DNA of 64,000 bases, taken from the IMG/VR virus record IMGVR_UViG_3300027804_000060; one strand, 5' to 3'. The notes below the pieces were generated by a model. The model saw only the letters and a list, made by a program, of their open reading frames with translations, was not told the origin of the DNA and made no database searches. Each line of letters begins with the position of its first letter. Within the stretch, counting starts at the first letter, position 1. Both the position numbers and the translations under genes were made by a program. Below are positions 25,266 through 56,926 of the stretch, one piece after another. Source of the DNA: an uncultured virus (IMG/VR IMGVR_UViG_3300027804_000060). Taxonomy: Duplodnaviria; Heunggongvirae; Uroviricota; Caudoviricetes.

Positions 25266-25625
25266 TTAGTCGAATGTTACTTCTATCCAAGAAAGAGTAC
25301 CTTCTTCCCATTCATAGTCCTTCGTGTCATCTGAAGGATAAGGAACAGGACTATCCCATTGACAAGTATCTCCATTCAGTGACCAACTTTCAAATGGTTT
25401 TGGTGGTATGAAAGCATCACGAACTGGATCATAAGTATAACCAATACCAGCAAAATTCTTTCTCAATGGTGTGCCACCCAATCTGTGTTGGCCAGCAAGT
25501 GTGTTGTAACTGGTTTGAACAAAACTACTTGGTTCTCCCCAAAGACCTGTATCAATCAAATCTTGTTCTATTGCTATTACTCTAGTAACAATATTGTTTT
25601 CATCCAATTGTGCAAAATGACTCAT
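25266..25625 (-). CDS. Fibre-associated hypothetical protein (HFAQ family), paralog 1
   Basis: 119 aa; QTSYN, LRKNFAGIG..YD..RDAFIPPKPF.SW; close paralog of 38490..38843. Confidence 0.8.
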   Translation of the reverse strand: MSHFAQLDENNIVTRVIAIEQDLIDTGLWGEPSSFVQTSYNTLAGQHRLGGTPLRKNFAGIGYTYDPVRDAFIPPKPFESWSLNGDTCQWDSPVPYPSDDTKDYEWEEGTLSWIEVTFD

Positions 25626-25635
25626 TATTTCCTCT

Positions 25636-26556
25636 TTAAATTGTCATGGTTCCTGAAGAAGTATAGGTGTAATATCTATATTCTCCAATTATAGTGTATG
25701 TTGGACTGCCTGTAGTACTAGATGCTGGTGGATAAGAATCTGGCCAAGCAACGATTACTACACCTTTACCACCATTGCCTCCAATACCTGTTGGAGAACC
25801 GCCTGATCCACCACCACCGCCACCACCCTTGTTTTCCGCACCTGGTTGTCCATCAGGTAATCCTGGTTGAAATCCACCAAGACCGCCAGCATTGCCGCTT
25901 GGATCACCGTCACCACCACCCGAGTAAACAGAGTTTGATAGAGAACCACCGCCACCACCGCCTGCATATCTAACACCATCAATCCAAGTTGCACCTACAC
26001 CACCATATCCGTTGTCGTATGTATCGGTACCACTGTCTCTACCTACTTGGCTTGCACCGCCACCGCCGGCACCTAATCGTGTAGCAGCCGATCCGCCACC
26101 ATTACCGCCGTTTTGACCTTGACCAGCAGTACCAGCACCACCGCCGGCACCTATTGGTGCATAGCTACCGCTTGCACCGCCACCAGAACCACCACCGTTA
26201 CCAGCTGTGCCACCACTTGATGCACCAGATGTACCGCCGCCGCCACCGCCAGTTGCTGTGACTGTTGATATGTTTGATCCAGCTAGTGAACTGTTGTTGC
26301 CATTTCCTGCCGTTGATGATCCGCCAGAAGGTGAACCTGTTCCGCCTGTTCCTACTGTTACTGTAAATGTGTGTCCCAATTGAGATGTTGTGTTACCTGC
26401 TACATAACCACCGGCACCTCCACCACCACCTCTACGTGTACCACCACCGCCACCGCCAGCTACAACTAGATATTCTACTTCATATAAATCAACAGTCGGC
26501 CTTGTGTATGTTATACCGCCTTCTATTGATATTCCTGGACCTATTCTAAAAACCAC
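25636..26556 (-). CDS. Glycine-rich adhesin-like protein (gp38-like polyglycine)
   Basis: VEYLVVAGGGGGG...GGGGAGG, many polyglycine runs, ends GGKGVVIV..P...YRYYTYTSSGT. Confidence 0.75.
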   Translation of the reverse strand: MVFRIGPGISIEGGITYTRPTVDLYEVEYLVVAGGGGGGTRRGGGGGAGGYVAGNTTSQLGHTFTVTVGTGGTGSPSGGSSTAGNGNNSSLAGSNISTVTATGGGGGGTSGASSGGTAGNGGGSGGGASGSYAPIGAGGGAGTAGQGQNGGNGGGSAATRLGAGGGGASQVGRDSGTDTYDNGYGGVGATWIDGVRYAGGGGGGSLSNSVYSGGGDGDPSGNAGGLGGFQPGLPDGQPGAENKGGGGGGGSGGSPTGIGGNGGKGVVIVAWPDSYPPASSTTGSPTYTIIGEYRYYTYTSSGTMTI

Positions 26557-26571
26557 TTTGTAATTCCTATA

Positions 26572-27459
26572 TTAAGCTAAGAGTGTACCTGATTGATTGA
26601 ATGTATAGTACTTATAACCACCAACGTTTGAGAATACCACACTTGCACCTGTATATCCTTGAGCGTCATCTTCAGTGTTTAAGAATCTCACAATTAAAAT
26701 ACCTCTACCACCGGTGCCCCCGACAGTTGGACCACCGCCGCCACCACCGCCGCCACCACCTAAATTGTCTGTACCGCCGCCACCATTACCTGTATTCAAT
26801 GTTTCGCCACCGCTACCACCGCCACCAGAGCCGCCGCCTGCGGCTCGAGAGTTACCGCCAGGGAAATAACCGCCACCGCCGCCACCGCCGCCATAAGTAG
26901 TGCCGTTTAACCATGCTAAACCATTGCCACCTGCACCTGCTGGTGAAGGTGTTGGAGTCGTGGCTGCTGTACCACCAACAGCACCTGCGCCACCGCCGCC
27001 ACCACCGCCACGGTTTGTACCAGCCGCACCATTTCCACCGTTATTACCTTGGCCAGCGATACCGCTGGCACCGGTGGATGCCTTGCCGCCACCGCCGCCT
27101 GAACCACCACTATTACCTGAGTTGCCGGTTGTAGCAGCTGTACCTGAACCGCCACCACCACCGCCAGAGGTTGATAGTGTTGTGAATCCTGCACCCGATA
27201 TACTAGAAGGATTGCCTGAACCACCTCTAAGGTTACTTGCACCACCACCAGAAGAACCACCAGCACCAACAGTTACTGTATATGTAACACCTCTAGTGAG
27301 AGTTTGACTTGTGTATGAGGTATAACCACCTGCACCTCCACCACCACCGTTTCGTCCACCGCCACCTGCGCCACCAGAAAGAACTAGTATATCTACAGTT
27401 AGAGGTCCACTCAAAGCGGCAACCGCATAACTATATGGGTTAAGTAGAAACCCCGACAT
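26572..27459 (-). CDS. Glycine-rich adhesin-like protein
   Basis: VDILVLSGGAGGG..., polyglycine runs, ends GGRGILIVRF...YKYYTFNQSGT; paralog of its neighbours. Confidence 0.75.
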   Translation of the reverse strand: MSGFLLNPYSYAVAALSGPLTVDILVLSGGAGGGGRNGGGGGAGGYTSYTSQTLTRGVTYTVTVGAGGSSGGGASNLRGGSGNPSSISGAGFTTLSTSGGGGGGSGTAATTGNSGNSGGSGGGGGKASTGASGIAGQGNNGGNGAAGTNRGGGGGGGAGAVGGTAATTPTPSPAGAGGNGLAWLNGTTYGGGGGGGGYFPGGNSRAAGGGSGGGGSGGETLNTGNGGGGTDNLGGGGGGGGGGPTVGGTGGRGILIVRFLNTEDDAQGYTGASVVFSNVGGYKYYTFNQSGTLLA

Positions 27460-28694
27460 TATGTTCTCCTATAATACAAAGTAACTTTTAGACCTTTTGC
27501 ACCAGTACCAGCAGTATCAATATCCATAGTTATTTCATCATCATCAGCAAAGGTTGTGGTTGAAAGCACGGCCGCCGTTGCAGCAGTTGTACTTGTTTTT
27601 TCATTAGCATCTATTGTTAATGTAGTACTAAAAATACTTGTACCATTTTTATTAATATCTACTGCGGGATTACCTGATGAACTCACAACAGACAATGAAG
27701 CTCTTGGAATTTGAGTCAAAGTCATGGCAAAAGGTGCTCTGAATGTAATTTTAGCCACACCTGTTGTGATTGAAGTTGTTTCATCACTCAATGCAATTGT
27801 CATATGAGTGTTTGGTTTCAGAGATGTTAACGCTGAACCGTCACCAATAAAAAAGTTTGAGGTAACATAATTTGCACCAGATATATTACCAGCACTTCCT
27901 GTTGTTCTAATGTTTGCAGTAATTATGTTACTTGTTGCATATATTGAAGTTGTATTTACTACAGCAGAATATACACCTTGTGTTGCAGCAATGTTACCTG
28001 TCACATTTGCCCATGTTGTGGAAACATTAACGATATTTACACCACCAACATTCATGTAAATATTTCCACCAGAGGTGGTCATACTTACATTACTTGTTCC
28101 ACTACTGATGTAAGGTGTGTTTGCATAAGTAGAAGCAGAATTGGCTGTTATGAATGCTGCATTGGCCTGTTCTCTTGCCCAAGTATCAGAACCACCTCCA
28201 CCACCTGAATTGGCTGCAGCAAAGGCTGCATTAGCATATAGACTGGCTGAATTTGCGGCTTCAAAAGCTGCATTGGCTTGAGTGAAAGAACCATTAGCAT
28301 ACAATCCAGCACTAGTAGCTTTTGTGTCCGCAGTATTTGCCGCAGTGAATGCTCCGTTGGCATACAATCCTGCTGAGTTTGCAGTATCATAAGAATTGTT
28401 TGCTTGTGTTCTTACCCATGTATCGGATGCATTATTGGCTGCATTGTATGCCGCATTGGCTTGAATGAATGCTCCATTGGCAAATAATGCTGCCGAGTTT
28501 GCAGTAATAAATCCTGCATTGGCTGTATCTCTGGCATATGTATCTGTACTAGAACCACCTCCACCAGTATTTGCTTGTGCAAATGCAGCATTAGCCTGTG
28601 CATATGCGGCATTAGCCTTTGCAAATGCAGAAGGTACCAAAGATGAAAAGTCTTTGGTTGAATCTAATCTTGATGGAGGTACTTGTGTTGACAT
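27459..28694 (-). CDS. Fibre shaft protein with AFxxANx heptad repeats and C-terminal beta-sandwich
   Basis: N-terminal MSTQVPPSRLD; heptads such as AFAKANA/AYAQANA/AFAQANT; C-terminal domain IALSDETTSITTG...GAKGLKVTLYY. Confidence 0.7.
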   Translation of the reverse strand: MSTQVPPSRLDSTKDFSSLVPSAFAKANAAYAQANAAFAQANTGGGGSSTDTYARDTANAGFITANSAALFANGAFIQANAAYNAANNASDTWVRTQANNSYDTANSAGLYANGAFTAANTADTKATSAGLYANGSFTQANAAFEAANSASLYANAAFAAANSGGGGGSDTWAREQANAAFITANSASTYANTPYISSGTSNVSMTTSGGNIYMNVGGVNIVNVSTTWANVTGNIAATQGVYSAVVNTTSIYATSNIITANIRTTGSAGNISGANYVTSNFFIGDGSALTSLKPNTHMTIALSDETTSITTGVAKITFRAPFAMTLTQIPRASLSVVSSSGNPAVDINKNGTSIFSTTLTIDANEKTSTTAATAAVLSTTTFADDDEITMDIDTAGTGAKGLKVTLYYRRT

Positions 28695-28714
28695 TAATTA
28701 TAGCCTTTTTACAC

Positions 28715-28722
28715 TATTTATT
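28715..28722 (-). promoter_or_regulatory. Late promoter (AATAAATA) heading the 27459-25266 unit
   Basis: Overlaps the stop of the 2031-aa gene, 20 nt upstream of the ATG at 28694. Confidence 0.55.
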
Positions 28723-31700
28723 TGATATCGTATGGGGCTGTTGGTACAGTTATGGTTCTTGCATAACCGTTTGTGATTCTCAAATCTGCAATGTAACCAA
28801 CTGTTCCATAATTGGCCAAACCGTTGTCTTTTGTTCCAATGTAAATAGGATTAGTTGTTGCGGTAGCGGTTTGTACGCCAGAAACTGTTGCTGTTCCACT
28901 TGCAACACCATTCACATAGAAAGTCATTGTTGTGCCACTACGAACCCAAGCCACATGTGTCCATTGATTCCATAAAATTGTTCCTGTACCATAATAATTT
29001 GTGCCATTAAAATATGCCATTCTCCATGAACCAGTTACTGGTGATGCTAGAGGACCTAAAGCAAAAGTCATTGCTGCTGCTGTTGCACCGGATTGTCTAG
29101 CGTCCCAAATAGCCCATGCTGTTGATAATGTGGTGTCTGTTGGATACACCCAACATTCAAATGTGAAGTCACCTGGGAAAATTTTAAGATTTGCTTGTTG
29201 TCTTATAGCAAGAAAATCTGTTTTGGTACCAAAATACACAGAATTAAATCTTGAGTTATTGCTGTTCGCAAAAGGTTCGAATGAGGTTATCTTTGCATCG
29301 CCTGCTTTTGTAATAGTAAATGCGTTGGTCGACCCATCAATAAATCTATTGTTATTGCAGATTAACAATTGTGTATTTGCAACTGCTGTCAGTGGGCTTG
29401 TAGGAACTGTAATCGTTGTACCGGAATATAAACCAGTACCTTTAATCAACCTCATATTTGAAATATAACCAGTGAAATAGTTTGCACCAGATGCACGACC
29501 ACCGACACCATAATTGGCCACTGGTGCTGCATAGTTTGTTGAGTCTGCTTGATTAACTACTCTAGTGCCATCGTAATATGCACTTGTAGTTCCAGAAGTT
29601 CTTGAAACTGCAACATGATGCCAAGTGTTTGTTGTTATACTTGCATCTGCCATAATTAAAGTGGCAGTGCCTCCATAAGGATCAAATGCTAATCCAGAAC
29701 TAGATGCACGCTTTAATATTCTAAGTGAGTTGTTTGTTTGTGATTCAAAAATATCAATTTCACCAGCTGGTATTGTTAATGCATTGAACCAGAATTCAAA
29801 TGTGAAGTCTCCTGTACCAAGGCCTAAGTTTGCTTGGTTTGCACCAAATGTTAAGTAATCTCCAGTACCATCAAAGTACGCACTGTATGTGTCATAGTAT
29901 GGTGAATTATTGGCCACCCGTCTTGCAGTACCAAAAGTTTCTATATTGTGGTTTCTTGTTGCATCTGCTGTTGATGGTCCTACTGTGCTTGCAAGCAACA
30001 ATACGGTGTTTGATGTTACTGGTAGTGGTTGGTTTGGAGGCACAAAAGCTCTGGTGTATGTGCATGAACCAACAACAAACCTTAAATTTGAAAGATAACC
30101 ATTTGTATAGTTTGAAGCTAAGTTAGATGAAACTCCAATAAACATACTACCAGAAGCAGAAGTCATTGCTTGTGAATCTGTTCTAGTTGATGAGACTGCT
30201 TCAACACCATTTGTAAATATTCTACACACATTACTACTATCTCTTGTCCAAGCATAATGATTCCATTGGCCAAGTTTACCTGGTATACCAGCAACCATCA
30301 TGGTATAAGTAGATGAACCGGTGCCCGCAATACCCCAATTTGGAGTAGTTCCACTAGCTAAATAAAACGCATAAGTTGGTCCACTACCACCGTAGGCCCA
30401 GTTTCTATTTGCGAAATGAACCTCTGTTGTGGCCGTAGTGTATGCCCATCCTTCAAGAGTGAATGGTGTACTTGCAGGTATATTAAAACTAGAATTGTAT
30501 GGTATTGTCAAGTAATCCGTTGTGCCGTCAAAGTAAATGCTGTTACCAAAAGTGTTTGCAGAATAATTTGATGCAGCACTAACAGTATCAGTAAATGGAT
30601 TTTGTATCACAGGCTTTGCGTCACCGTTGACTGTGATTGCAAATGCATTATTACTGGTATCAATAAATGATGTGGACTGGCATGTCAACAAACTGGTATT
30701 GGCAATTGCTGTAAGTGGTGTAGTTGATGGTGTGAATGCTGATGTATACACGCAAGTATTAGTAACTCTAAAGTTGGATATGTAACAATTAAAATTACTA
30801 TTTCCAATTTGCCATGTACCTTGAGTGTAAGTGGTAGCAGTTGTAGTAGATCCTTTATCAACACCATTCAACCAAATTGTCATTAAATTACTACTGTTTC
30901 TAGTGACTGCAATATGGTACCATGTTCCATTAGTCAAAGATGATAGTAATAATGTAGAATTGAATATGTTACCTGTACCGAATATGTTTGGAGTAATTCT
31001 AGTACCATCATTGTAAATATTAAATCCACCTGCACTATTTACACCAATAAAAGGATTAGCTGTAGGTGCGGCATTAAAATTAACCCAAAATTCAATGGTA
31101 AATGTACCGGCAAGAGTTGTCCAAGCATTTGAAGGTGCAGTCAAATAATCTCCAGTGCCATCAAAATAACCACTATAACTTGCAGGCGTTACTGTAACTG
31201 AACTGAATGGGCCGAATTTTGAAACTGACGATGTAGTATTAATAACTACTGTTGCATTTGATGTTGATTGGTCTTGTCCTGATGCAGAATTGAAACATAA
31301 TAATCTAGTGTTGGCTACTGATACCAATGGATTTATTGAAGGTGTAAATGTGCTGGTATATAATGCAGTACCATTCAAAATTCTAAAGTTTGAAACATAA
31401 CCAATGGTATTATAAGCTCCATCCCAACGATTGAGAAAATTCAAATAACCAAAAGTTAATGTACCAGTACCATAAGTATTTGAACCCAAACTTGTTCCAT
31501 TAATAAACATATAGACATTGCTGCCTGATCTAGTCATAGCCAAATGATTCCAAGTACCAGTCGTTTCGGTTTGTATATTTCTAGAAAATGTTAATACTGT
31601 ACCAATGTTTTCATTTTGTATTTTATCTGGATACCATATCAAATTTTGGTTTGAGTTGTTATTTGTACGACCATCAATAATAAAATTTTGGGACCCGTTC

Positions 31701-34700
31701 CAAGATTGAATATGAAACCACCCCTCAACAGTAAAATCACCAGTAAATGTCTGAGTTGTGGTTACTTGTGGTCTACCATTAACATATAAACTCCATGAAC
31801 TGCCAAATGGGCTGAATGTGCCTAAGTTTGAGTTTCCAAATCCTGAAACTATATTGTTTAAATTACTTTCATCAACTATTACTTTTGTATTTGAAGATAG
31901 GTTTGTTTGTGCTGTTAGTAATACTGTGTTGGCCACAGGTGTCGATGGTGCAAAAGAAGGAACGAATGCACTGGTGTATAATCCAGTACCATTAACAACT
32001 CTTACATTGGACAGATATCCAGTCATAGATGAATCTCGAGCCGCCGATGCCCCTACACTAATTCTGGTACCATTACCTCTAGAACCTGATAGTGTTCTTA
32101 CTGCGCCCGCTAAAGCGCCATTTATAAATGCATACATGTTAGTGCCAGTTCTTGAAAAGGCCACATGTGTCCAAGTATTGAGTACCATAGCAATTGTTGT
32201 ATATATGTATTCTGTTGCATCTCCGAAAATACCATATTTCAACTGCCCCGATGCATTTGTCAACAAAGCAAATCTACCAGATACTTCAGTGCCAAACGCA
32301 ACAAGCGGTTGATTTGCTATAGATGATGTTAAGTACACCCACATTTCTACAGTAAAATCCGCAGGTAAAATACCATTTGATGATTCTGCTCCTAAACAAT
32401 CCCCAGCACCATCAAAGTATGCTGAGCCTTCATTACCAACTAAAGTAACTGTTGATGTGTTTGCAAAAGGTCCGTTTCTTGATGGTCTTGCATCACCATT
32501 TGTGGTAATAGTAAATGCATTGGATGAGTTGTCGATTACTGTGTTTGCTTGTGCTGTTAACAAACTGGTATTGGCAATGGCTGTGAGTGGTGCTGTAGGT
32601 ACAGTAAAATTGCCAGTATATACTGCGGTTCCTTTAACAACACGAAGGTTAGAAATATATCCCGTTAATAAGTTTGCTCCGCTCAACCCAGCGCCAGATA
32701 ATACAGTTCCACTGGTAGAATAATTATTAGTGTCGGTATAAGTAGAACCTGTTTGTACACCGTTAAAAAACATTTTTGTGCTACCAGAAGCTCTACATAC
32801 AACAACGTGAACCCATTTATTTAAAAATGTATATGAACCACTGTTAATTGCAGCGGCGCCAGCAACATAATACTGCATTGTTGTGGCTGCGGTAAAATAT
32901 AAAACAGGGTGTAATGAGGTTGAGCTTGTTCGGTTATCAAATATAGTACCTGATGTACCTGCTGACATATAAACCCAAGCTTCTATAGTAAAATCACCTG
33001 TGCCAAATTGGAAAGCCGCATTACTAGGCACACTCAAATAATCCCCCGTGCCATCAAAATACATACTGTAATTATTTGCATCAGGCACAGTGACTGTTGT
33101 TGGTGTACCATTGAATGGGCTAAATGAATTAACTCTTGTATCACCACCCTTTACGATTGTAAAGTTATTATTTGAATTGTCAATCAGTCTATTAGATTGA
33201 CATGTTAACAAAGATGTGTTGGCCACATATGTTAGTGGTGCAGTTGATAAAGTTGTATTTGCGGTATATAATGCGGTGCCATTTACAAATCTAAGATTGG
33301 AAATATAACCGTTAAATGCAAATGATGTGCCGCTATTAAAACCAATGTATGTTGTGCCACCAGTTGTTAAAGAAGTTGCGTAAGTTTGTGTTGTACCTAC
33401 TTGCAATCCATTAATAAAGAAATATACAGATGATCCGTTGCGAGTAATTGCAATGTGGTTCCATGCTCCCAAAACAATTGATCCTGCGGTTACTCCCACA
33501 CCCCAAGAACCGCCTGGACCCATTAACCACTGCACAGTTTGATTGGCCAATACTTGAACACGAACAGCTCCATATCCCGAACTGCCAGTATCTGAAATGT
33601 TAAAAATTGTTTGTTGTGTTGCTGAACTGGTATTGATCCATGCTTCTACCGTAAAACTATTGGTAGCAATGTTGAAAGCCGAACTGGTCAATATGGACAA
33701 ATAATCTCCAGTACCATCAAATAAATTGCTGTAATATCCTTCTTTAAAAGGATGAAACTCATTTGACTTTGTATCTGCACTAACCACAATTTCATTATTA
33801 ATTGTACTTGCATCTGTGTTGAATGTATTTCCGTTTGGTGCAGTGCTTGCACTCATTAATAATGATGCATAATTCCAGAACGCATCACCTGGAAGGTTGA
33901 TTGTCCAGTTCAAATATAATGCCGCAGTTCTAGTTGTTGTATTTGCAGTTGCAGTTATGATTGATGTGTTACTTGCAACAACTGTTGGCGTACCAGAAAT
34001 TATACCTGTAGAGGTATTCATTGATAGACCAGTTGGCAATCCACTAGAAGTATACAGTACGCCATAACCGGCCGCAGAAGTTGCAACAGGTGTCACATTT
34101 GATATTGGTGAATTTTGTGATACAGAATATGATGTGTTGTTTGCTGGTGATGAAAATGAAACAACATCTGTATTAATTGTAAGTGAAAAAGAACGAACTG
34201 AGTCTTGATTATCCGCATCAGTCGCTCGTACAGTAAATGAATATGTTGTACTTGATCCATCCACAGGTGCAGTACCCGAAATTGTACCACCAGAACTTAG
34301 TGTTGAACCTGAAGGTAAAGAACCGGAAGCCAAAGCGTATGTAATCGGTGCATCACCGGTTGCAACAACAGTTGTGTTAATTGCAGTTGTTTCATATACA
34401 GAACCCAATGAACCAGCTGACGTTGTGAATGTTGGTACACCAGAGTACACCAAACCTGGTACAAGAATACCAGTACCACCGTTTGCATTGGTAACAAAAA
34501 CGGTATAACTACCAGAGCCTAATGCAGGAGAACTGAAGGTCAGACGTCCAGAATCCAGGAATGTTACTGCGCCTATCGTAGTAGACCCAACCAAAACGGT
34601 TGCACCTGGTGCGAAACCTGACCCGTACAGGACGATAGTTTGGCCGCCCGCTGTGTCTGCTGCGGTATCATTTGTGTCAACATAAGAGCCATCAGTTACC

Positions 34701-34813: not shown

Positions 34814-35172
34814 TAACTGATCTCCTCAAACGAACACACGGCTTGTAATATACTGTTGGTACTGGCTGTTAATCTCAATTCATCACCTTCCAACAAATAA
34901 ATGGAAAGTGTTTTGTCAATGGCTGTGAAAGATGTATCTGCTGCAACTGAAATCGTGCTAACCAATTTGTATGCAGTCGCACTTCTAAACAAATCAACTG
35001 TTATATCTGCCGCACTAGTTGCATGAATATTGGAAATAATCAACGAATTGATTTTTAATATCTTACCACTGGACGAAGGATTGTTTGCAATCGAAGTTGC
35101 TGAGGTGGTAACTGCTTGTACCTGTGTATTTCCATTAATTGTTGTTAGTGCTGCTATGTTTGGGTTTGCCAT
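34813..35172 (-). CDS. Small beta-sandwich putative adaptor (MANPNI family)
   Basis: 119 aa; KINSLIISNI....ADITV, IYLLEGDEL, ends SFEEIS; translationally coupled to the LamG gene. Confidence 0.7.
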   Translation of the reverse strand: MANPNIAALTTINGNTQVQAVTTSATSIANNPSSSGKILKINSLIISNIHATSAADITVDLFRSATAYKLVSTISVAADTSFTAIDKTLSIYLLEGDELRLTASTNSILQAVCSFEEIS

Positions 35173-46417: not shown

Positions 46418-47173
46418 TTAGAACGTTCCGCCATCCTTGATTGGGCCATCAGTACCAATTAAACCGGTTAGGGTTGTTGGTACCACTTCTTTATTTAGCT
46501 CATCAATTTTTTTTCTTTTGGCAGGAGGTAGTTGCAAGTAATCAATTTTAGCAATTAATTCATCTATCTTATTGTTATATTCACTTTTTTCAGTTTCGTG
46601 TTTCCGAATCAAATTGTTAACAGCATCTTCATTTTGTTTTAATAATGCCGCAACAGTCTTTTCATTCTGTTCCGTTAATGCATTAATTTTTCCATTATTT
46701 TCAGATGCAAGAGAGTTGATTCTATTTTCAAGTTCTGAACGAACCCTATTAGTTTCTTCTCTTGCTCTAACCAATTCACCTTTAAATGTTTCCACATGCC
46801 CAGCTTGATTCTTAACACTATCATAGTCACGAAATTTAGTAATCAATTCATCAATTTCGGTTTGATGTTTACTTTTCAATTCGTTAACATCGTTACCTAA
46901 TTTTGTTACAAGTTTTTCACTTTCAGATAATTTATTTTCCAATTCTTGAACAGCCTTACTTTGATTTGATTCGCCGTTTTGTTTCAATTCTTGAATCGTT
47001 TGTTGCAACTCAAGATTTGATTTTGCTAACGCATCAATCTTTTCCGACTGTTCTTTCACAACATCATCAGTTATTTTCGCATTCGCTTGCATTGAGATAT
47101 TTCGAATAACACAATCTGTCATTGTGCTTGTCAAGGTCTCAACATAATAATTTAAATACTTCTCATTTGCCAT
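46418..47173 (-). CDS. Charged coiled-coil protein ending DGGTF
   Basis: 251 aa, E/K/N-rich heptads, AGGAG RBS. Confidence 0.75.
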   Translation of the reverse strand: MANEKYLNYYVETLTSTMTDCVIRNISMQANAKITDDVVKEQSEKIDALAKSNLELQQTIQELKQNGESNQSKAVQELENKLSESEKLVTKLGNDVNELKSKHQTEIDELITKFRDYDSVKNQAGHVETFKGELVRAREETNRVRSELENRINSLASENNGKINALTEQNEKTVAALLKQNEDAVNNLIRKHETEKSEYNNKIDELIAKIDYLQLPPAKRKKIDELNKEVVPTTLTGLIGTDGPIKDGGTF

Positions 47174-49189: not shown

Positions 49190-49197
49190 TATTTATT
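49190..49197 (-). promoter_or_regulatory. Late promoter (AATAAATA)
   Basis: Overlaps the stop of the 78-aa gene, upstream of the ATG at 49147. Confidence 0.55.
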
Positions 49198-49432
49198 AAA
49201 ATGTGCCACCGTCAAAATCACTAATTGTATTTAAAATAGTATTACTGATATATTCTGATCCACCAATGCTAATGATATTGTTGGTCCACAATTGACTTTG
49301 CACATTTAATGTGGAACTACCAATAAAAAGTGTATTTGAAAGGAAAGAGTAAGCTAATTCTCCGTCTGCTAGATTGCCAGGTGCCGTGTTTGCATATGAA
49401 CGGAGAATCTGTATTGTTGTATTAGATGCCAT
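49196..49432 (-). CDS. Minimal linker protein: GELAY domain plus DGGTF tail
   Basis: 78 aa, IQILRS...P..L.DGELAYSF.SNTLFIGS...FDGGTF; matches only the two ends of the 642-aa neighbour. Confidence 0.75.
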   Translation of the reverse strand: MASNTTIQILRSYANTAPGNLADGELAYSFLSNTLFIGSSTLNVQSQLWTNNIISIGGSEYISNTILNTISDFDGGTF

Positions 49433-49966
49433 TTAGAAGAACCCTGAATCAGCACCCTGGAAAGCCAAATAAGTTACTGAATTTGCTACTGCGGCCTGAA
49501 TTGCTGCTTCTGAAATTACACCACCAACAGTTTGAACAGGCGCAAAACCACCAACCGGCGATACCACAATCGCAATCGGATTAGGATTTGCTGTTGTTGG
49601 TGCAGCTGCAAATGAAATTGCACCAGTTGTTGCTTCAGCTTTGATCTGTGTTCCGTCCAAGTCAATTGTGTTACCACTTAGATATAGACTTCTGAATTTT
49701 TGTGTTCTACTACCAAGGTCAAATGTTCTTGAAGTTGTTGGTAATAGATTTCCGTGTACAGGAGTGTCGGTACCAAGGCCTCTGGCAGAAAATGTTTTGG
49801 TTTGTGAGTTATAGACAATTACATCACCAGTGTTTGCGCCTTCCAAAGAAAGGTCAGTCAAACTCCTAAGTGTCTTTGTACCATAGGAAAGTGTTTGTAC
49901 CTTAGTTTTTTGGCCCTCAACTCTAACTTTTACGGTTGCAGGTTGTCTGACAGTTACCGTTGGCAT
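49433..49966 (-). CDS. Fibre-associated protein ending ADSGFF
   Basis: LRSLTDLS...ANTGDVIVYN; GNLLP....FDLGS....FRSLYLSGNTI fibre module. Confidence 0.65.
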   Translation of the reverse strand: MPTVTVRQPATVKVRVEGQKTKVQTLSYGTKTLRSLTDLSLEGANTGDVIVYNSQTKTFSARGLGTDTPVHGNLLPTTSRTFDLGSRTQKFRSLYLSGNTIDLDGTQIKAEATTGAISFAAAPTTANPNPIAIVVSPVGGFAPVQTVGGVISEAAIQAAVANSVTYLAFQGADSGFF

Positions 49967-49975: not shown

Positions 49976-50317
49976 TTAAAATACTGTAACTTGGGGTAAA
50001 ACGTTCACAACTCCCTCTAAAACCCGTATGACTGTGTTTGAAGAATCTTTGATAATCACATCATACACATAACGACCAGCAGAAATATTTGCCGTATTTG
50101 CATACGGTAAAGATAATATTATAATACCTTCCGTTGGATCATTAACTGTTATTACAAAATTTGCGGTTGTGCTACTAGAATAGTATGACTTTTTCATGGC
50201 AGCTTTTACTTGGCTACCAGTTAGGGTAAAAGGTGAACCATCAGCTTGATCCAATGTAATGGATGTACTAAAGTTTGAACCTTGTTCTAGAAATAATTCT
50301 TGGTAACCAGCTGGCAT
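49976..50317 (-). CDS. Small Ig-like virion protein (BppU-N-like putative fibre anchor)
   Basis: L.LEQGS.F...I.L....G.PF.LTG.....MKKSY.S, G.I.LSL....TA.I.AGRYVYDV.I......RVLEG...V.P.VT. Confidence 0.65.
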   Translation of the reverse strand: MPAGYQELFLEQGSNFSTSITLDQADGSPFTLTGSQVKAAMKKSYYSSSTTANFVITVNDPTEGIIILSLPYANTANISAGRYVYDVIIKDSSNTVIRVLEGVVNVLPQVTVF

Positions 50318-50337: not shown

Positions 50338-50345
50338 TATTTATA
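50338..50345 (-). promoter_or_regulatory. Late promoter (TATAAATA) heading the anchor and linker genes
   Basis: Exact consensus followed by CCTCC-AAAA-GGGGT-TAAACA-ATG. Confidence 0.75.
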
Positions 50346-50441: not shown

Positions 50442-51674
50442 TTAAATATTATTTTTCAATTCTTTTACTTCTGCACGTAATTCTTTAATACCTTCAATTA
50501 ATAATGGAATTAACTTTTCGTAACGTACTGTTAAGTATTTCTCATCAATTGGTGCAGGCACAACAACTCCACAGTCCGGTAATTGTTTTTGAACCTGTTG
50601 TGCAGATATACCAATTTGACGATGTTTTGTATACCCTAATGATTCTGCTAATTCATTTTCTTCATAGTAGAAACCACTTAATTGTTCAATTTTATCTAGT
50701 GCATTTTCAATGTCACCAAGTTTAGTTTTCAATCTGTCATCAGAATAATATGCAGTAATGTTATTAGTTGCACGAATTTCACCCCCGGTACCAGTGGCTG
50801 CAGTACCAATACCTAATGAATTAAATTGAGGATTTGAACTAGTATCAATACCTTGGGGTGGTGAGTAGATGGCGGGGATGACGGGCCTTCCACTCAAATC
50901 TCCGTATGCTCCGCTTGTTGCAACAGTCGCTAATCCCGAAACTGAACCAGCAGCAATTGCAATATTCGTTGCAACTACAGAAGTAACTCTACCTTTTGAA
51001 TCTACCGCAATTTTTGGAACTACTGAAGCTGTTCCAAATGTACCAGTACTAGTACCAGCATTACTTAATCTGGCATCTGGTAATGTACCCGAACTAATAT
51101 TACCAGCATTTGTTGTGTCTGTGGTTGCTGAGGCTGCAAATGTTGGATAACTTGTGATTTGAGAAGTTGCAATTTGTATTGCAACATTTGATGCACCAGT
51201 AATTCTTCCTTTTGAGTCCACTATAACTTGACTAACACTTGAAGCGGTACCATGTGTGGCTGCAACAACACCAGTATCTGATAATCTTGCGTTTGGTAAA
51301 GTACCTGAACTGATGTTACCAGCATTTGTAGTATCTGTGGTTGCCGATGATGCTAATCCTGAAACTGCACTGGAAGCAATTGCGATTGCAATATTGGCCA
51401 CTCCAGTGGCTCTACCTTTTGCATCCACTATAATTCTTGGAACAATACTTGCACTTCCATATGAACCTGCTGCAGCACCAGTATCAGGCAATCTCGCATC
51501 AGCCAGTGTGCCACTAGTAATTTGAGATGTAGCTATACCAATAGTAGTATTGGTGACACCAGTAATTCTACCTTGTGGATCAACAACTATAACTGGTATT
51601 GCGGCACCAGTACCGTGTGTGGCTGCTACAACATCCGTATTTTCTAGAACTGACGGCGTAATCTTTGTTGTCAT
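50442..51674 (-). CDS. Tail fibre with C-terminal intramolecular chaperone / auto-cleavage (peptidase S74) domain
   Basis: YYSDDRLKTK..IENALDKI..L.G.YY, G.SAQ.V, VRYEKLIPLLIEGIKEL; internal repeats VD.KGR.T and SGTLP.ARL; N-terminal MTTKITPSVLE. Confidence 0.85.
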   Translation of the reverse strand: MTTKITPSVLENTDVVAATHGTGAAIPVIVVDPQGRITGVTNTTIGIATSQITSGTLADARLPDTGAAAGSYGSASIVPRIIVDAKGRATGVANIAIAIASSAVSGLASSATTDTTNAGNISSGTLPNARLSDTGVVAATHGTASSVSQVIVDSKGRITGASNVAIQIATSQITSYPTFAASATTDTTNAGNISSGTLPDARLSNAGTSTGTFGTASVVPKIAVDSKGRVTSVVATNIAIAAGSVSGLATVATSGAYGDLSGRPVIPAIYSPPQGIDTSSNPQFNSLGIGTAATGTGGEIRATNNITAYYSDDRLKTKLGDIENALDKIEQLSGFYYEENELAESLGYTKHRQIGISAQQVQKQLPDCGVVVPAPIDEKYLTVRYEKLIPLLIEGIKELRAEVKELKNNI

Positions 51675-51692: not shown

Positions 51693-51998
51693 TCATGCAT
51701 TTTTGTTTTCATCCAATACATTTTCATAAAAATGTACATTTTCATTGGATTCAAAATTTATTTTTTGAGGATTAAATTTGTCAATTATTTGTTGATATAA
51801 AGGATGACTTGGTTCGACATTAATGATTTGAATAACGTCATTCGGTGTTATATTTTTTCCTTTTTCAAATTCATCCACAACAATACGATCTTCAGGCAAA
51901 ACGTTTGCTTTAACATAGGCTCGTATAGTGTTATGTGGAAATTTGGAAGTATGTTGAATATATTCTACTTGTAAAATTTTATTGATTGAAAGTGTCAT
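51693..51998 (-). CDS. Hypothetical protein (possible fibre assembly chaperone)
   Basis: 101 aa, AT-rich, GGAG RBS, directly downstream of the long fibre gene; function inferred only from position. Confidence 0.6.
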   Translation of the reverse strand: MTLSINKILQVEYIQHTSKFPHNTIRAYVKANVLPEDRIVVDEFEKGKNITPNDVIQIINVEPSHPLYQQIIDKFNPQKINFESNENVHFYENVLDENKNA

Positions 51999-52030
51999 TT
52001 ATTTTGCTCCATTAAAAATTAAGTTTCAAC

Positions 52031-55000
52031 TTATGTACCAACTTTATATGCCATAAATCTTACATGGCCTCCAGCATACCAATATCCTGTGGGCCCGCCG
52101 TTAGCATATGCTCTCCACTCATTAGCAACGTCAGGTGCTAATCTATAAACATGTTTATTTGTGGCGCTTGGAATAGTTCCATCATTTCTCCAGCCAAGAA
52201 CACTATCCGCATAATGTGCTCTACTGGTAGCTAACCCAGACGTTTCCCACCAATGCGTACCTGGTCTAAAATAATCATTTCCAAATTTCATTGTAACTCT
52301 GACGTTATTACCTGCGGCCAGATAATATGGTGTTTTTTGGCGACCTAACGCCGCCAAAGTGGTGTCCTCGTTAGACCAATGAAAATAACCATAAGGTCCG
52401 TATGTTTGAAATGGTCTTGCTGCAACATAGACATTACCGTCAGCTGGCATATAATTAACCGTATCATAATTTTGTGTTGTTAATTTAATTAATCTCCAAA
52501 TACCATCAACAAGAACTTCGACAACCAACCATAGATAAGTGGTACCGCTTGCCCACATACTGGAATTTAATCTTTGTCCTCGATAGAACATATCTGGTTC
52601 TGTTATGTTCCACCAACCTGCGCTAGGAATATTTAAATATTGAACCGTACTCCAACCACTACCAACCCAACCTGGACCAGTATATGTACTAGTATAAGTA
52701 ACACCACCAACTGATCCCATTCCAAACATTTCTTGATAAGTAAAGTATGCTGTGCCTTGAGTAACATTTGATGCTGAACCAGCAGTTGTGGCGTATCCAG
52801 CATTTCCAGCACTTGATGCATATCCAGCATTTCCAGCATATCCAGCACTTCCAGCATAAGTGGCATTTCCAGCACTTCCAGCATAACCAACACTCAACGA
52901 TCCGGTTTGATATGAACGCAAGTAACTATCACTACCGTTTGTACCCCAAACTCTTGGTGGGTTGCTAGCATTATTTTCGTCACCATTACTTGAATTAATG
53001 TAACCGGTTTTTAAATAACCGCTTGCATCAGTTCTTACAATTTTGTTTGCTTCATTGTTTCTATCTGCATGTACATTTAATCCAGCAACAGTTGTTGAAT
53101 TTCCAGCACTTGTAGCATAACCTGCATTTGTAGCAGAACCAGCACTTGTAGCATAAGAAACAGACTGTGAACCAATGTTGGTGCTGTTGATATATGTTAC
53201 CCAGCCACCATAATTACCAGCTTGTATATTTCTGGTTCTAAGTAAATTAGCATTGTCTTCCCAACCCCATGCAACCTGAACACCCCACAAATTAGATGCA
53301 TTGGTGTGACGCATGTTCTGTTGGAACCACCAACTTCCACCTGGACCACCAGTTGAGCTTCCTGATGAAGTATCACCACGAAGAACTGTACTTCCGGCCG
53401 GAGCGTGTGAGAAATCGGTATTCCAATTGGAATTGAAACCCATTGTTACGTTATTTGCATAAGTAGAATTCGTAGCAAATGCAGAAGTGATATTCCAATT
53501 TCCAGAAGCACCAGTGCCTGTTAATGTTGGTGCATACGAATTATAGTTACCAGAATCTAGTATAACATAAGAAGCGCCACCTCGACTCCATCCACCAGTT
53601 CTTAATTGGTTATCGGTACCAAGTCCAAAATTAATTGCATATACGCCAGGTCTGTGAAAAGACATGGCCGCAGCACCATTGCCTTGTGATTGAACTTGTG
53701 GTCCTAAATGGCCAACATAAGAAACATCTTGGCCAGACACAGTATAACCTAAATCTCCAGCAGTACTAATAAGATTATTAGCACTATCAGCAATTCCGTT
53801 AATATTCACACCTGTCAGTCTTTGGAATCCAGTTGCACGATTCAATGCAATAGAAGTTGTACCAATAAAGTGTGATGAATTGCCTAGTATAGTACTTGAA
53901 ATTGTACCACCAGATAATTTATCTGCATTTAATGATGTTAACCAAGTAGGATTTGCATAACTTCCTGTCGAATACAATCCATTTGTTACTGTACCTGCAT
54001 TACCGGTTATACTGTGTGAGAATGTCCAACTAGAATTTGCTAAATCGTGTACATATTGTCCAGTTGCGAATGAAGTATTTGCGGTTGCTTTGTTTATTGT
54101 TTGACCAATAACTTGACCAGAAAATGTGCCGCCAGTCTTTGGCATTTTACCAGATTCTAAACCATCAATTGCAGACTGAATAGTGCCTGCTGTAAGTGCT
54201 CCTGTTGCTGGACCATATACAATGTTATTTGCAAAATATTCATATACTGCATAACCATCTACTTCGACCAATATTTTATCATTAACAACTGGTGCAACAG
54301 TCATTGTTACTCTAGATGTACCAGAATTTAAAGTATATTCAGATTCTAATTGACGAACACCGTTAATATACACCCTAACCTGGTTGGCTTGACTGAATGT
54401 TGGTGTTGCATATATTGTTGTTGTACCATCACCAGTATAAGACAATCTATTAGATGTAATTCTAGTACCAGGTTGAGTGCCTGCACCTCCTGCACCAGCA
54501 GCAGTCCAGTAGAAGTTACCTGATCCACCAGTTGCAAGTACGTAACCTGAAGTTCCACTTGCTGTGCCTGTAGCAGCTGCAACCAATGTGTTGAAAGCTG
54601 ATGAAGCTGATGTTGAACCAGTGCCACCAGATGAAGTTGATAGTGGAGTTCCTGTTAGTGTTAAACCTGTAAATGACGGACTTGCGGTTGTTTGCAAATC
54701 TTGTGATGTACTAATTGCCAATGTGTTTGCAGTAACTGAATGTATTGCAATGCCGTTATTAGATGTTAAGGTTAATGATGCACTTGTTGGTGATATTGAA
54801 CCTCTTGTTCCTTTAATCTCAGCAGTTGCAGCATTAGCTTTACCGAAAGCCGCATTAGCCTGTGCAAACGCAGGCGCAATTTGTGGAGCAACGTTGTTGG
54901 CCGAAGCAAAAGCAGAATTGGCATAAGATGATGCTGAGTTGGCAGCACCAAATGCACTATTGGCATAAATTGAAACGGAGTTTGCATCACGGAATGCACC

Positions 55001-56926
55001 ATTTGCATACAATGATGCGGAATCTGAACGACTTTTTAACCAAGTATTTGCTGCTGTTATATTATCATTTAGTGTTTTTGCAGCAGTCAGTGATGCAGCT
55101 TTAGTTCCATCAGTAGTTGATATTGAATCACTAATTTGTTGTTCGGTAATAATTCTGTAGTATGAAGATGATTCAAAACTATCTACATCATTAATATCAA
55201 AATAATTTCCTGTTTCATTCCAACGAATAGATGCATTTGATGCAACACCATTTGCTACACCATTAGCTGTTCTGAAAGTGCTAAATTTTGATGTTTGATT
55301 TGGTGTTCCTTGACTTATTATAAATTCATTTGAATTAAATACTGTTCTTCCATTAAGTGTGAAATTACCAGCAATACTTAAACCACCTTCACCGACTTGT
55401 AGGTTGTGAACTCTCGCTTCAGCACTTTCAGCATCAATTAAATTGGAAATGCGTACATTTGGTGTCCAAACATCAGTATTTGCTCTTATTGTGTTTGCTC
55501 TTACTGTGTCGGTTGCCCAAACATTTACTGTATTAACACGGGAATTTGCTTGTAATATATTGGTAAACGTTGTACCAGTAACCGACATTGTTCTGGTATT
55601 AGCTGAACTATTAGCTTGTAGAACATCTGTAAATGTGGTACCAGTAACCGACATTGTTCTGGTATTAGCTGAACTATTAGCTTGTAACACATCCGTGAAT
55701 GTAGTACCAGTAACTGAAGCAGTTGTTGTATTCGTTGATACGTTAGCTTGCACAACATTGGCATACATTGTCCAAACTACGTATGCATTAGATGTATTGG
55801 ATGATGTATTAGCTTGTAACACATTAGTAAAAGAAGTTCCTGTTACTGATAATGTTGTAGTATTTGCTGATGTATTTGCTTGCAATTCATTCGTGTGTGT
55901 GGTGCCAGATACAAAAGCTGTTGCAGTTGTTGTAAATGTATTTGCTTGCAATACATCTGTAAATGTGGTACCAGTGACAGAAGCTGTTGTTGTATTGGTT
56001 GACACATTAGCTTGCACAACATTTGCATATAGTGTGTGCATAACCGATGCATTAGATGTATTGGTTGATGAGTTGGCTTGCACTACATTTGCATATAGTG
56101 TGTGCATAACCGATGCATTGGAAGTGTTGGATGATGTATTGGCTTGTAATACATGTGTAAATGTGGTACCAGTAACAGAAGCTGTTGCTGTATTTGTAGA
56201 TATGTTTGCCTGTACTACATTTGCCCACAAGGTATGTATAACGGATGCATTGGCTGTATTGGTAGATGTGTTTGCTTGTAACACATTTACCCAAGCTGTG
56301 CCACTTACACCAACAGATGTTGTAGTAACATGTGTATTGGCCTGAATAGTTGCAGTAAGAATACTTGTGTTTGCTTGCACATCATTAGTAAACACTTTGT
56401 TGTTTGCAGAAAGTGTACCTGTCAATACACTGGTATTTGATTGTATTCTGTTGGTATACAGTGTGTTGAAAATTGAAGCATTAGAAGTGTTGACAGAATT
56501 GTTTGACTGCAATGTTTCTGTAAATGTTCCACCTACTACAGAAATGCTTCCACCAAATCGTGAATTGTTTGCAACTCTTAGTGCTGTGTCTGATCCTAAA
56601 ACGTTTAATACATTACCAACATTGGCTGTTCCTGTTGTTGCAAGACTTAGATTTCCATTTGAAAAGTAACCTTGCCCTTCCACATTCAAATTGTTTTGAA
56701 TGATTGCAGAAGAACCAATACCTTGCACTGAAAATGTCTTTTGAACAATAACATTTCCGTTTGATTGTAATGCTGTCTGTGAATTTTCTGAAAGGAATAA
56801 TGTTCCAGAATCTTTGACATAATTTTCTTTGGCAAGAATGTTGTTTTCGGTAACCAGATTGTTGGTCGCAACCATCCAATCACCAAATGTATTGGCATAA
56901 CTTAATGAGGATACTGTATTAGCCAT
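52031..56926 (-). CDS. Long tail fibre protein
   Basis: N-terminal ANTFGDWMVATNNL anchor; 22-aa tandem repeats; heptads; Ig-like module; A.SAG.A repeats; aromatic-rich C-terminal putative receptor-binding domain. Confidence 0.8.
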   Translation of the reverse strand: MANTVSSLSYANTFGDWMVATNNLVTENNILAKENYVKDSGTLFLSENSQTALQSNGNVIVQKTFSVQGIGSSAIIQNNLNVEGQGYFSNGNLSLATTGTANVGNVLNVLGSDTALRVANNSRFGGSISVVGGTFTETLQSNNSVNTSNASIFNTLYTNRIQSNTSVLTGTLSANNKVFTNDVQANTSILTATIQANTHVTTTSVGVSGTAWVNVLQANTSTNTANASVIHTLWANVVQANISTNTATASVTGTTFTHVLQANTSSNTSNASVMHTLYANVVQANSSTNTSNASVMHTLYANVVQANVSTNTTTASVTGTTFTDVLQANTFTTTATAFVSGTTHTNELQANTSANTTTLSVTGTSFTNVLQANTSSNTSNAYVVWTMYANVVQANVSTNTTTASVTGTTFTDVLQANSSANTRTMSVTGTTFTDVLQANSSANTRTMSVTGTTFTNILQANSRVNTVNVWATDTVRANTIRANTDVWTPNVRISNLIDAESAEARVHNLQVGEGGLSIAGNFTLNGRTVFNSNEFIISQGTPNQTSKFSTFRTANGVANGVASNASIRWNETGNYFDINDVDSFESSSYYRIITEQQISDSISTTDGTKAASLTAAKTLNDNITAANTWLKSRSDSASLYANGAFRDANSVSIYANSAFGAANSASSYANSAFASANNVAPQIAPAFAQANAAFGKANAATAEIKGTRGSISPTSASLTLTSNNGIAIHSVTANTLAISTSQDLQTTASPSFTGLTLTGTPLSTSSGGTGSTSASSAFNTLVAAATGTASGTSGYVLATGGSGNFYWTAAGAGGAGTQPGTRITSNRLSYTGDGTTTIYATPTFSQANQVRVYINGVRQLESEYTLNSGTSRVTMTVAPVVNDKILVEVDGYAVYEYFANNIVYGPATGALTAGTIQSAIDGLESGKMPKTGGTFSGQVIGQTINKATANTSFATGQYVHDLANSSWTFSHSITGNAGTVTNGLYSTGSYANPTWLTSLNADKLSGGTISSTILGNSSHFIGTTSIALNRATGFQRLTGVNINGIADSANNLISTAGDLGYTVSGQDVSYVGHLGPQVQSQGNGAAAMSFHRPGVYAINFGLGTDNQLRTGGWSRGGASYVILDSGNYNSYAPTLTGTGASGNWNITSAFATNSTYANNVTMGFNSNWNTDFSHAPAGSTVLRGDTSSGSSTGGPGGSWWFQQNMRHTNASNLWGVQVAWGWEDNANLLRTRNIQAGNYGGWVTYINSTNIGSQSVSYATSAGSATNAGYATSAGNSTTVAGLNVHADRNNEANKIVRTDASGYLKTGYINSSNGDENNASNPPRVWGTNGSDSYLRSYQTGSLSVGYAGSAGNATYAGSAGYAGNAGYASSAGNAGYATTAGSASNVTQGTAYFTYQEMFGMGSVGGVTYTSTYTGPGWVGSGWSTVQYLNIPSAGWWNITEPDMFYRGQRLNSSMWASGTTYLWLVVEVLVDGIWRLIKLTTQNYDTVNYMPADGNVYVAARPFQTYGPYGYFHWSNEDTTLAALGRQKTPYYLAAGNNVRVTMKFGNDYFRPGTHWWETSGLATSRAHYADSVLGWRNDGTIPSATNKHVYRLAPDVANEWRAYANGGPTGYWYAGGHVRFMAYKVGT
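52780..52890. repeat. Degenerate 9-nt tandem repeat (ccagcaNNt) encoding (Y/S/N)AG units
   Basis: Protein YAGSAGNATYAGSAGYAGNAGYASSAGNAGYATTAGSA; boundaries approximate. Confidence 0.7.
55490..56350. repeat. 66-nt (22-aa) tandem repeat array in the long fibre gene
   Basis: Units like VLQANTSTNTTTASVTGTTFTD. A 49-nt exact match at 55572 and 55638 and a 35-nt exact match at 56019 and 56085 are both 66 nt apart. Boundaries approximate. Confidence 0.85.

Follow-up and report, generated by a model that had tools for sequence, protein, structure and literature searches.

Two recurrent candidate joints between separately encoded tail-fibre pieces in an uncultured, probably T4-like aquatic phage

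The fibre-gene block

The window analysed here is a 64,000-nucleotide stretch of DNA from an uncultured virus (IMG/VR record IMGVR_UViG_3300027804_000060), all genes of which lie on the minus strand and in which 23 close-packed, co-oriented open reading frames (ORFs) of the ORF list occupy positions 25266-56926. An initial annotation of the letters alone had counted about 23 fibre-like genes in this block and had listed terminal peptide motifs for them; the count was reproduced and each listed motif was found. The block is flanked upstream by a gene encoding a DUF4815 baseplate giant (57149-63574; 2141 amino acids, aa) and downstream by the neck genes gp13 and gp14 (24453-25229 and 23570-24451) along with the usual T4-type structural genes, and the region most likely encodes the tail fibres of an aquatic myophage of the T4-like kind. 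We consider it probable that two recurrent joints, each readable as a short terminal peptide and a domain that would receive it, link the separately encoded fibre pieces of this block non-covalently and end to end.

The first of these joints concerns six genes, all on the minus strand as are all features described below. A 113-aa beta-sandwich protein resembling LtfC (p132) of T5/DT57C, here called the anchor (49976-50317; phrog_3304, E 5e-19), is followed by a first fibre segment of 177 aa ending in DSGFF (49433-49966), a 78-aa linker consisting of an N-terminal GELA domain and a DGGTF end (49196-49432), a 642-aa segment with a GELA domain and a DGGQF end (47219-49147), for which no useful PDB sequence match was obtained, a 251-aa coiled-coil segment with a conserved N-terminus of its own and a DGGTF end (46418-47173), and a 145-aa protein that opens with a GELA domain and closes with a hydrophobic tail (45976-46413). 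The initial annotation had grouped 49196, 47219 and 45976 together as GELA/DGGxF linkers, which describes the first two correctly, whereas the third has the GELA start but the hydrophobic-tail end and may be regarded as a converter from one type of joint to the other.

The second joint concerns the genes that follow. The hydrophobic tail of the converter belongs to a class designated A, and its gene precedes that of a class-A adaptor, a 108-aa jelly-roll protein (45620-45946), and of a 264-aa connector (44824-45618) with a class-A N-terminal peptide (N-peptide), short shaft repeats, a DUF4183-like domain and a C-terminal XD1-like domain. Beyond it lies a 1687-aa adhesin with six LamG domains and He_PIG Ig-like domains (39782-44845; Laminin_G_3, six stretches, E 4e-107), the listed start of which overlaps the connector gene, so that the ATG at its eighth codon (about 44824) is the likely start. 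A 288-aa shaft with AN.AF repeats, a conserved 'free' N-terminus and a class-B tail (38879-39745) is followed by a 117-aa phrog_7759 protein (38490-38843; E 5e-37), a 109-aa class-B adaptor (38155-38484; its most likely start is the ATG at 38484 and not the TTG at 38532) and a 309-aa Gly-rich tip with a class-B N-peptide (37224-38153). The shaft and adaptor of this module had been listed together; both are present, and the phrog_7759 gene lies between them.

A third set comprises a 679-aa shaft with a class-C tail (35182-37221; phrog_677, E 4e-21), a 119-aa class-C adaptor (34813-35172), the stop codon of which overlaps the next start by one base, and a 2031-aa adhesin with eight LamG domains and a class-C-like N-peptide (28718-34813; Laminin_G_3, eight stretches, E 1e-125). 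The block closes with a 411-aa shaft that has a conserved 'free' N-terminus and neither tail nor adaptor (27459-28694), two Gly-rich tips of 295 aa (26572-27459) and 306 aa (25636-26556; GTG start), and, directly after the latter, a second phrog_7759 protein of 119 aa (25266-25625). The two multi-LamG adhesins and three Gly-rich proteins named in the initial annotation were accordingly all recovered by profile, the latter with Gly_rich_2 scores of 62.8 (37224), 44.6 (26572) and 52.4 (25636) bits against a cut-off of 24.3. The shafts gave no Pfam match at E up to 5. A possible fusion of an adaptor to the C-terminus of shaft 27459 was ruled out (hhalign probability 0.2%).

A T4-type plug and socket used in series

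The junctions between neighbouring genes were compared in 160 related loci from viral contigs, in which ORFs were called and for which a GELA-domain profile was built; deduplication by the last 25 residues of the upstream and the first 40 of the downstream protein left 882 unique junctions, which derive from related loci and are not phylogenetically independent. All 228 matches to the GELA profile begin within the first 10 residues of a protein. In 125 of 130 unique junctions the gene starting with GELA was preceded by one ending in [DN][GSAMC]G.F, with at most one extra residue, and two of the five exceptions have an upstream coil with a D-D-F end. A DxGxF-type end preceded every gene of the coiled-coil type (38/38), as against 16 of the 714 other junctions (Fisher p 3e-151, a value which overstates independence because the loci are relatives). 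Adjacency statistics of this kind had been proposed as a check of the initial annotation, and its claim that short terminal peptides recur in pairing with particular domains is borne out, with pairings far above chance among these relatives.

When the profile was run against five T4 fibre proteins it matched residues 6-45 of gp37 (27 bits, E 2.3e-10), and the C-terminus of T4 gp36 reads DFGYY. Trimeric gp36 binds the N-terminal region of gp37 in T4 (PMC3004832). Given the gp37 match and the gp36 end, the joint is of a known kind, and by sequence comparison the DGGxF/GELA pair is the gp36-gp37 joint, here used in series. The order of the genes is the order of assembly in T4 and would be so in the window, the upstream-encoded partner ending in D-x-G-x-aromatic in both. 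The joint occurs once in T4, whereas in the window it would be used three times serially and once more onto a coiled-coil protein, and the window includes pieces of 78 aa that are hardly more than a socket and a plug. Passages of a T4 review that treat this junction (PMC3004832) give no peptide-level rule for it, and the DGGxF/GELA rule would provide the long-known gp36-gp37 junction with a concrete sequence basis. The suggestion that the pairing code as a whole was undescribed therefore does not extend to this half of it, which corresponds to the known T4 junction.

The Pfam family Mtd_N (PF18454) weakly matched 8 of 25 GELA domains at E up to 1 (best E 0.0028), with no match to the window's own first GELA member, and the sole PDB matches of the GELA profile were designed 'Cake' repeat proteins with per-domain E values above 400, which were rejected as spurious.

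Within the window there are four plugs (DSGFF, DGGTF, DGGQF and DGGTF, ending 49433, 49196, 47219 and 46418, respectively) and four sockets (GELA domains in 49196, 47219 and 45976 and the coil N-terminus of 46418), a balance that fits one linear chain. In the proposed assembly a C-terminal D-G/S-G-x-F sequence would meet the Mtd_N-like GELA domain or the coiled-coil N-terminus of the next piece, and four uses of this joint would yield a chain running from the LtfC-like anchor through 49433, 49196, 47219 and 46418 to 45976. Four relatives were compared (G002, G003, G004 and G006, two of them complete genomes). Protein 49433 is 74-90% conserved in them and ends there in DSGFF, DAGFF or DMGFF, and the arrangement around the coiled-coil segment 46418 is kept.

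The scores of the anchor against Pfam LtfC (18.3 bits against a cut-off of 27; E 0.0036) and BppU_N (E 9e-4) both fall below cut-off and its match to p132 in the PDB is weak (E 0.14-0.23), though this match and that to phrog_3304 still indicate a relative of LtfC; homologues were present in 116 phage records, T4-like cyanophages for the most part. As in T5 and DT57C, a small beta-sandwich protein is encoded beside the first fibre piece, and in DT57C the terminus of the fibre protein LtfA is held by strand donation to the sheets of LtfC, a solved structure (PMC10713586) and a precedent for the docking of a peptide on a sandwich. There, however, the fibre is attached to a siphovirus tube, whereas the window phage would have a contractile T4-like tail, and protein 49433 shows no detected similarity to LtfA.

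A tail, an adaptor and an N-peptide in three classes

For the second joint a further 160 loci were added, giving 175 unique triplets of tail, adaptor and N-peptide, of which 22 were assigned to class A, 81 to class B and 67 to class C, with five unclassed. Among the first 65 unique junctions, nearly all proteins encoded upstream of an adaptor end in a hydrophobic C-terminal tail of about 10 residues; the mean hydropathy of the last nine residues exceeded 1.5 in 58 of the 65, compared with 77 of 765 other proteins. Both the tail motif and the N-terminal motif of the protein that follows are particular to the adaptor class. In leave-one-out prediction with shuffled labels as control (20 shuffles), the class of the adaptor was correctly predicted from 88 of 101 unique tails (shuffled: mean 42, maximum 55) and from 103 of 117 N-peptides (shuffled: mean 47, maximum 57).

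These termini remain constant while the bodies between them vary. The upstream proteins are between 48 and 1417 aa long, and include some of 63-64 aa that are hardly more than an N-terminal element and a tail; the following protein is a Gly-rich tip in 29 of 70 cases for class B and in 21 of 48 for class C, and a LamG or different protein in the others. In 14 of 18 class-B pairs the adaptor stop overlaps the tip start by one base, the arrangement seen in the window at 34813. Comparative evidence thus supports peptide-domain pairings that are distinct and class-specific and that are kept while shaft and tip bodies are swapped.

The window was scanned with class-specific matrices for tails and N-peptides, scored in bits against background percentiles, and was found to contain one full set of each class. 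The strong tails are those of 45976 (A, 17.0 bits; 99th percentile of the class-A background 11.0), 38879 (B, 24.1) and 35182 (C, 19.7), and the N-peptides those of 44824 (A, 20.4), 37224 (B, 20.7) and 28718 (C), the last being the weakest at 11.4 bits, between the 95th (8.4) and 99th (21.7) percentiles. The 6-LamG protein was ruled out as a carrier of a class-B N-peptide, its 11.4 bits lying below the 95th percentile of 13.7.

Judged by sequence, the same triplet spans cultured phages of different morphotypes. It was found in the Pelagibacter podophage HTVC010P (gp23, gp24 and, three genes on, gp27), the Puniceispirillum phage HMO-2011 (gp43, gp42, gp41), the cyanomyophage S-TIM5 (gp131, gp130, gp129) and, twice, the Methylophilales myophage Melnitz (gp168-170 and gp173-175). 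Among the papers listed by keyword searches of an open-access library, none describes this three-part joint, the half of the pairing code for which the suggestion of novelty stands within those searches; the paper on phiRIO-1 treats multi-gene fibres without mention of this adaptor. Peptide docking on dedicated domains is already known in T4, DT57C, CBA120 and KP32-type phages, and it is the form taken by the second joint that was not found described. In the KP32-type dual receptor-binding proteins of Klebsiella phages a short conserved peptide likewise docks on a dedicated domain of its partner (PMC13352976); the domains and peptides differ, two proteins are linked there against chains of up to about nine here, and no separate adaptor protein is described between the two.

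A hairpin-like motif, P-x-x-G...Y-x-Y...W, recurs immediately before the class-B and class-C tails of many shafts, for example in the C-terminal part of 38879-39745, and shafts with an N-terminus of the 'MAFP' family, among them 35182-37221, begin with a similar one.

Fold and family of the adaptors

The three adaptors of the window are paralogous (25-31% identity). An AlphaFold2 (AF2) model built from an alignment of 51 relatives is a nine-strand jelly-roll with a predicted local distance difference test score (pLDDT) of 90.8, the nearest folds being nucleoplasmin-like proteins (Z 9.9), a trimeric phage cement protein (Z 9.8) and the Ena pilus subunits of Bacillus (Z 8.9-9.4); the TNF/C1q family scored lower (Z 7.0-7.9) than these other generic jelly-rolls. 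Searches of PDB sequences with the adaptor profile returned nothing below E 0.25, and Foldseek found no match to the model at E 0.001 or lower. The family is large: at least 7960 clusters at 90% identity matched at E 0.001 or lower (7960 of 8000 scored candidates), and the scored relatives lack Pfam domains throughout, nearly all of them being annotated as 'hypothetical'. Free-standing members are 108-134 aa long.

Small trimeric jelly-roll modules serve as docking surfaces in CBA120 TSP4 and T4 gp10, a role that we propose for the adaptors. In those hubs the docking domains XD2 and XD3 are covalently part of the protein, with about 60 aligned residues each, whereas the adaptors are free-standing and have no detected sequence relation to XD2 or XD3. 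The model would allow edge augmentation or axial insertion of peptides into the adaptor as possible modes of docking.

Fusions place the adaptor domain within fibre proteins. Among 65 longer relatives 10 carry Gly_rich_2, four of these together with LamG; in the adaptor-tip fusions that were inspected the adaptor is N-terminal, and in three the former N-peptide of the tip is still visible at the seam. A 953-aa shaft of G004 carries two adaptor domains in tandem at its end. Further variants (among P0139, P0141, P0143, P0152, P0142 and P0121) have an insert of about 250 aa after the first jelly-roll strand or occur as tandem doubles, and in one variant the adaptor is joined to He_PIG-like and RCC1 repeats; the jelly-roll may be exposed at the surface and itself bear binding domains. 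A contig, L203, encodes three adaptor-family proteins in a row (ORFs 3-6; 131, 110 and 123 aa), flanked by a shaft whose tail is of class C and by a Gly-rich tip whose N-peptide is of the same class, an arrangement which may correspond to stacked rings or a hetero-oligomer.

Receptor-binding heads, connector and a candidate chaperone

The AF2 model of the Gly-rich tip 37224-38153 has a pLDDT of 87.6, with residues 1-17 below 50, as would be expected of a peptide that folds only on its partner. The tip gave no useful match to PDB sequences, and its model aligned with the tail tip of Bxb1 (9D93_Qa; Z 13.5, root-mean-square deviation (rmsd) 3.2 over 169 residues, 37% identity) and with residues 47-280 of Pam3 gp24 (7YPX_A; Z 12.0, rmsd 3.5 over 172 residues, 26% identity), as well as with polyglycine-II bundles such as the springtail antifreeze protein and the Gly-rich domain of ALK. 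The Gly-rich head of Pam3 gp24 is its proposed receptor-binding part and has been likened to gp38 of S16, which attaches non-covalently to gp37 via a hydrophobic platform (PMC9608196). The comparison with gp38 drawn in the initial annotation is therefore apt, in that the tip folds like the Pam3 head. S16 gp38 was absent from the 50 best fold matches of the model. Pam3 gp24 and the window tip share the polyglycine-II lattice, but the former docks to the baseplate by a long helical domain of its own, in place of which the window tip has a disordered N-peptide of about 17 residues and a separate jelly-roll adaptor. The distal pieces are most likely receptor-binding heads, being either polyglycine-II Gly-rich proteins of the Pam3 gp24 kind or multi-LamG proteins.

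Residues 162-261 of the connector match residues 75-174 of CBA120 TSP4 (7REJ; E 1.3e-12), which fall within its XD1 domain. In TSP4, XD1 is a spacer and the small jelly-rolls XD2 and XD3 dock partner trimers (PMC8825819); the connector ends three residues past the matched stretch and has neither of the docking domains.

The phrog_7759 proteins had no PDB sequence match and no Pfam match at E up to 5. Their homologues directly follow a Gly-rich ORF (at least 25% Gly) in 28 of 36 unique junctions, with a background of 140 such ORFs among 2122, and by analogy with Pam3 gp25 the two window copies, of about 118 aa, may be chaperones of the Gly-rich tips.

The Pam3 system also bears on an alternative account of the adaptors, in which these are themselves fibre-assembly chaperones that bind the hydrophobic tail, aid trimerisation and are released, the tips attaching by other means. 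The gene of Pam3 gp25 comes after that of the fibre, and the protein, which contains a beta-sandwich domain, binds the fibre in a 3:3 complex and has been proposed to leave it before maturation (PMC9608196); the adaptor gene likewise directly follows a fibre gene, as do those of many fibre chaperones, and exposed hydrophobic tails are typical chaperone clients. Against this account, adaptor domains occur covalently joined to shafts and tips, in tandem and with domains inserted in them, and the N-peptide of the following gene co-varies with the class of the adaptor. Depositors have labelled several of the cultured homologues 'virion structural protein', a label for which no proteomics was found, the paper on CRP-9 containing no mass spectrometry, and phrog_7759 is the better chaperone candidate for the Gly-rich tips. 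We therefore regard a purely chaperone role for the adaptors as unlikely.

Several fibres or one branching appendage

The initial annotation had interpreted the block as a single branching appendage with at least five tips, its topology mirrored by gene order. Several observations are in keeping with this. The genes form one tight co-oriented run, the sole exact late promoter box of the fibre region precedes the anchor gene, the hubs CBA120 TSP4 and T4 gp10, at which branching takes place, contain XD1 domains (PMC8825819), and in relatives the protein after adaptor A does not terminate the series. Four relatives share a core from the baseplate giant to adaptor A and then diverge, the next protein being a long shaft that ends in a class-B or class-C tail, with an adaptor and a tip encoded after it. 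Each relative has between two and six adaptor matches, except G005, in which none was found.

One result in favour of a link comes from a close relative represented by a single contig (L001/L121/L254), the class-A adaptor of which is 100% identical to that of the window. This relative lacks a 6-LamG gene at the place between connector and shaft and encodes instead a 680-aa protein, the start of which corresponds to the N-terminus of the connector (63% over 87 residues) and residues 418-680 of which correspond to the whole of shaft 38879 (75.5% identity over 286 columns). The fusion suggests a once-continuous shaft that is split in the window by a cassette of XD1 and the 6-LamG adhesin, and it seems from the sequences that this cassette was inserted into the shaft gene. 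Were shaft 38879 still to sit on the connector, a real branch would exist there.

Against a single tree stands the balance of the parts. With one tail, one adaptor and one N-peptide per class, and four plugs for four sockets, the termini fit linear chains, in which no site is left over for a branch. Shafts 38879, 35182 and 27459 have N-termini from conserved 'module start' families, with which the later modules of relatives always open, and no partner or socket was identified for them; one of these families comprises 11 unique members, in all of which the profile match is N-terminal. The idea that the 'free' motif also lies inside long shafts was unsupported, a regular expression finding no such case and the profile two internal ones with domain E values above 1. 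The connector has the spacer XD1 alone, and the N-terminus of the 6-LamG adhesin is not class-B-like. Taken together, the unpaired shaft-start families and the one-to-one balance of plugs and sockets favour several chain-type fibres over one tree.

Gene order also proved an imperfect guide to topology. Melnitz gp188 (71 aa; 23471-23686 in L173) has a class-A tail and is followed by a neck gene, with no adaptor gene between; that phage encodes three class-A tails, two class-A adaptors and four N-termini of the M-x-Y/F-I/L-G type, so that adaptors may be shared or the pairing may be non-collinear. The phrog_7759 gene inside one module of the window and the three consecutive adaptor genes of L203 are further departures from a strict gene-order rule. 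A single branching appendage mirrored by the gene order is, on this evidence, decidedly unlikely.

It is very unlikely that termini and adaptor genes are conserved chiefly as recombination linkers for module swapping with no specific docking, for although the shaft and tip bodies are highly mosaic around a constant junction cassette, and the 680-aa and split arrangements reflect a recent cassette exchange, conservation extends at the protein level across very distant phages with adaptor identities of only 25-50%, the fibre region lacks any match at the DNA level in the phage collection, the model shows the adaptor to be well folded, the T4 joint to which the first joint is homologous is a physical one, and linker and docking roles are not exclusive.

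The proposed assembly

The assembly that we think probable, with pieces joined non-covalently end to end, would involve fibres built from many separately encoded trimeric pieces. The DxGxF/GELA joint would account for the chain up to the converter. At the second joint the hydrophobic tail of a shaft, of about 10 residues, a jelly-roll adaptor that is probably a trimeric ring, and the N-peptide of the next protein, disordered by itself in the model, would come together, once for each of classes A, B and C. The output of the locus would most likely be one long chain and three shorter shaft-adaptor-tip fibres. For both joints it is from the pairing of termini that we infer physical binding, stoichiometry and class specificity.

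Several points weigh against this reading. Co-inheritance of neighbouring genes could produce much of the class association. The fold matches of the adaptor in the PDB, at Z up to 9.9, are to generic jelly-rolls, and strict donor-strand complementation is not indicated because the model is complete, with no missing strand. The structural label on cultured adaptors is a depositor's label, as mentioned above. With three class-A tails to two adaptors in Melnitz, the pairing of a tail with the next gene is not strict, and G003 has three class-B adaptors, from which it follows that adaptor classes are not always orthogonal within a virion. The several orthogonal docking codes proposed in the initial annotation are thus upheld as class-specific pairings, but not as a rule that holds within every genome.

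A more far-reaching proposition, which we put forward as a tentative possibility, is that the fibres of aquatic phages, across several morphotypes, are wired by a common code that can be read from sequence. It would be composed of a single plug and socket of the gp36-gp37 type and of three classes of tail, jelly-roll and N-peptide that exclude one another, and the order of the pieces and the tip carried by each shaft could be read with it from the genome alone. In the window this code would specify a compound appendage in which a LamG cassette spliced into a once-continuous shaft at the XD1 connector forms a true branch.

The host range of the most abundant phages of oceans and lakes is set by fibres that are unreadable from sequence today, their genes being mostly 'hypothetical'. 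If the joints bind as proposed, termini alone would show which pieces connect, and long runs of unannotated fibre genes could be converted into explicit assembly diagrams. The junction cassette is exactly the site of natural module swapping; it would account for the exchange of receptor-binding tips and would give defined points at which tips could be spliced between laboratory phages. The adaptor family is huge and unannotated, with no Pfam family, and its pairing rule is directly testable.

Upstream genes and features of the DNA

Three genes of the block precede the anchor. The first encodes a fibre protein of 1631 aa (52031-56926) with no Pfam or PHROG match, which lies outside the chain described in the initial annotation and forms part of the conserved core upstream of it, with 40-48% identity in G002, G003, G004 and G006. 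The second encodes a 101-aa protein (51693-51998) with no Pfam or PHROG family match and no counterpart in these four relatives. The third encodes a 410-aa fibre protein with matches to tail-fibre PHROGs and a C-terminal Peptidase_S74 intramolecular chaperone domain (50442-51674; PF13884, E 3e-10, 40.7 bits against a cut-off of 22); its homologues in the four relatives are shorter (322-330 aa) and have a different C-terminus.

At the DNA level the fibre block had no match in the phage collection, and the neck genes had only weak matches, to freshwater and marine cyanomyophages and one pelagimyophage. The G+C content rises to 0.48 at 26000-28000, from about 0.35-0.40 elsewhere in the window; as this rise coincides with two Gly-rich genes, and hence with GGN codons, it is not a sign of foreign DNA.

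An exact match to the T4-type late promoter box, TATAAATA, lies at 50338-50345 on the minus strand, 21-28 nucleotides upstream of the anchor gene. As it is the only one in the fibre region, a late promoter for each fibre cassette was ruled out. The window contains four such boxes in total, a number not above chance (83 of 100 shuffles reach four), and the other three (1058, 13103 and 14344) are likewise located upstream of minus-strand genes.

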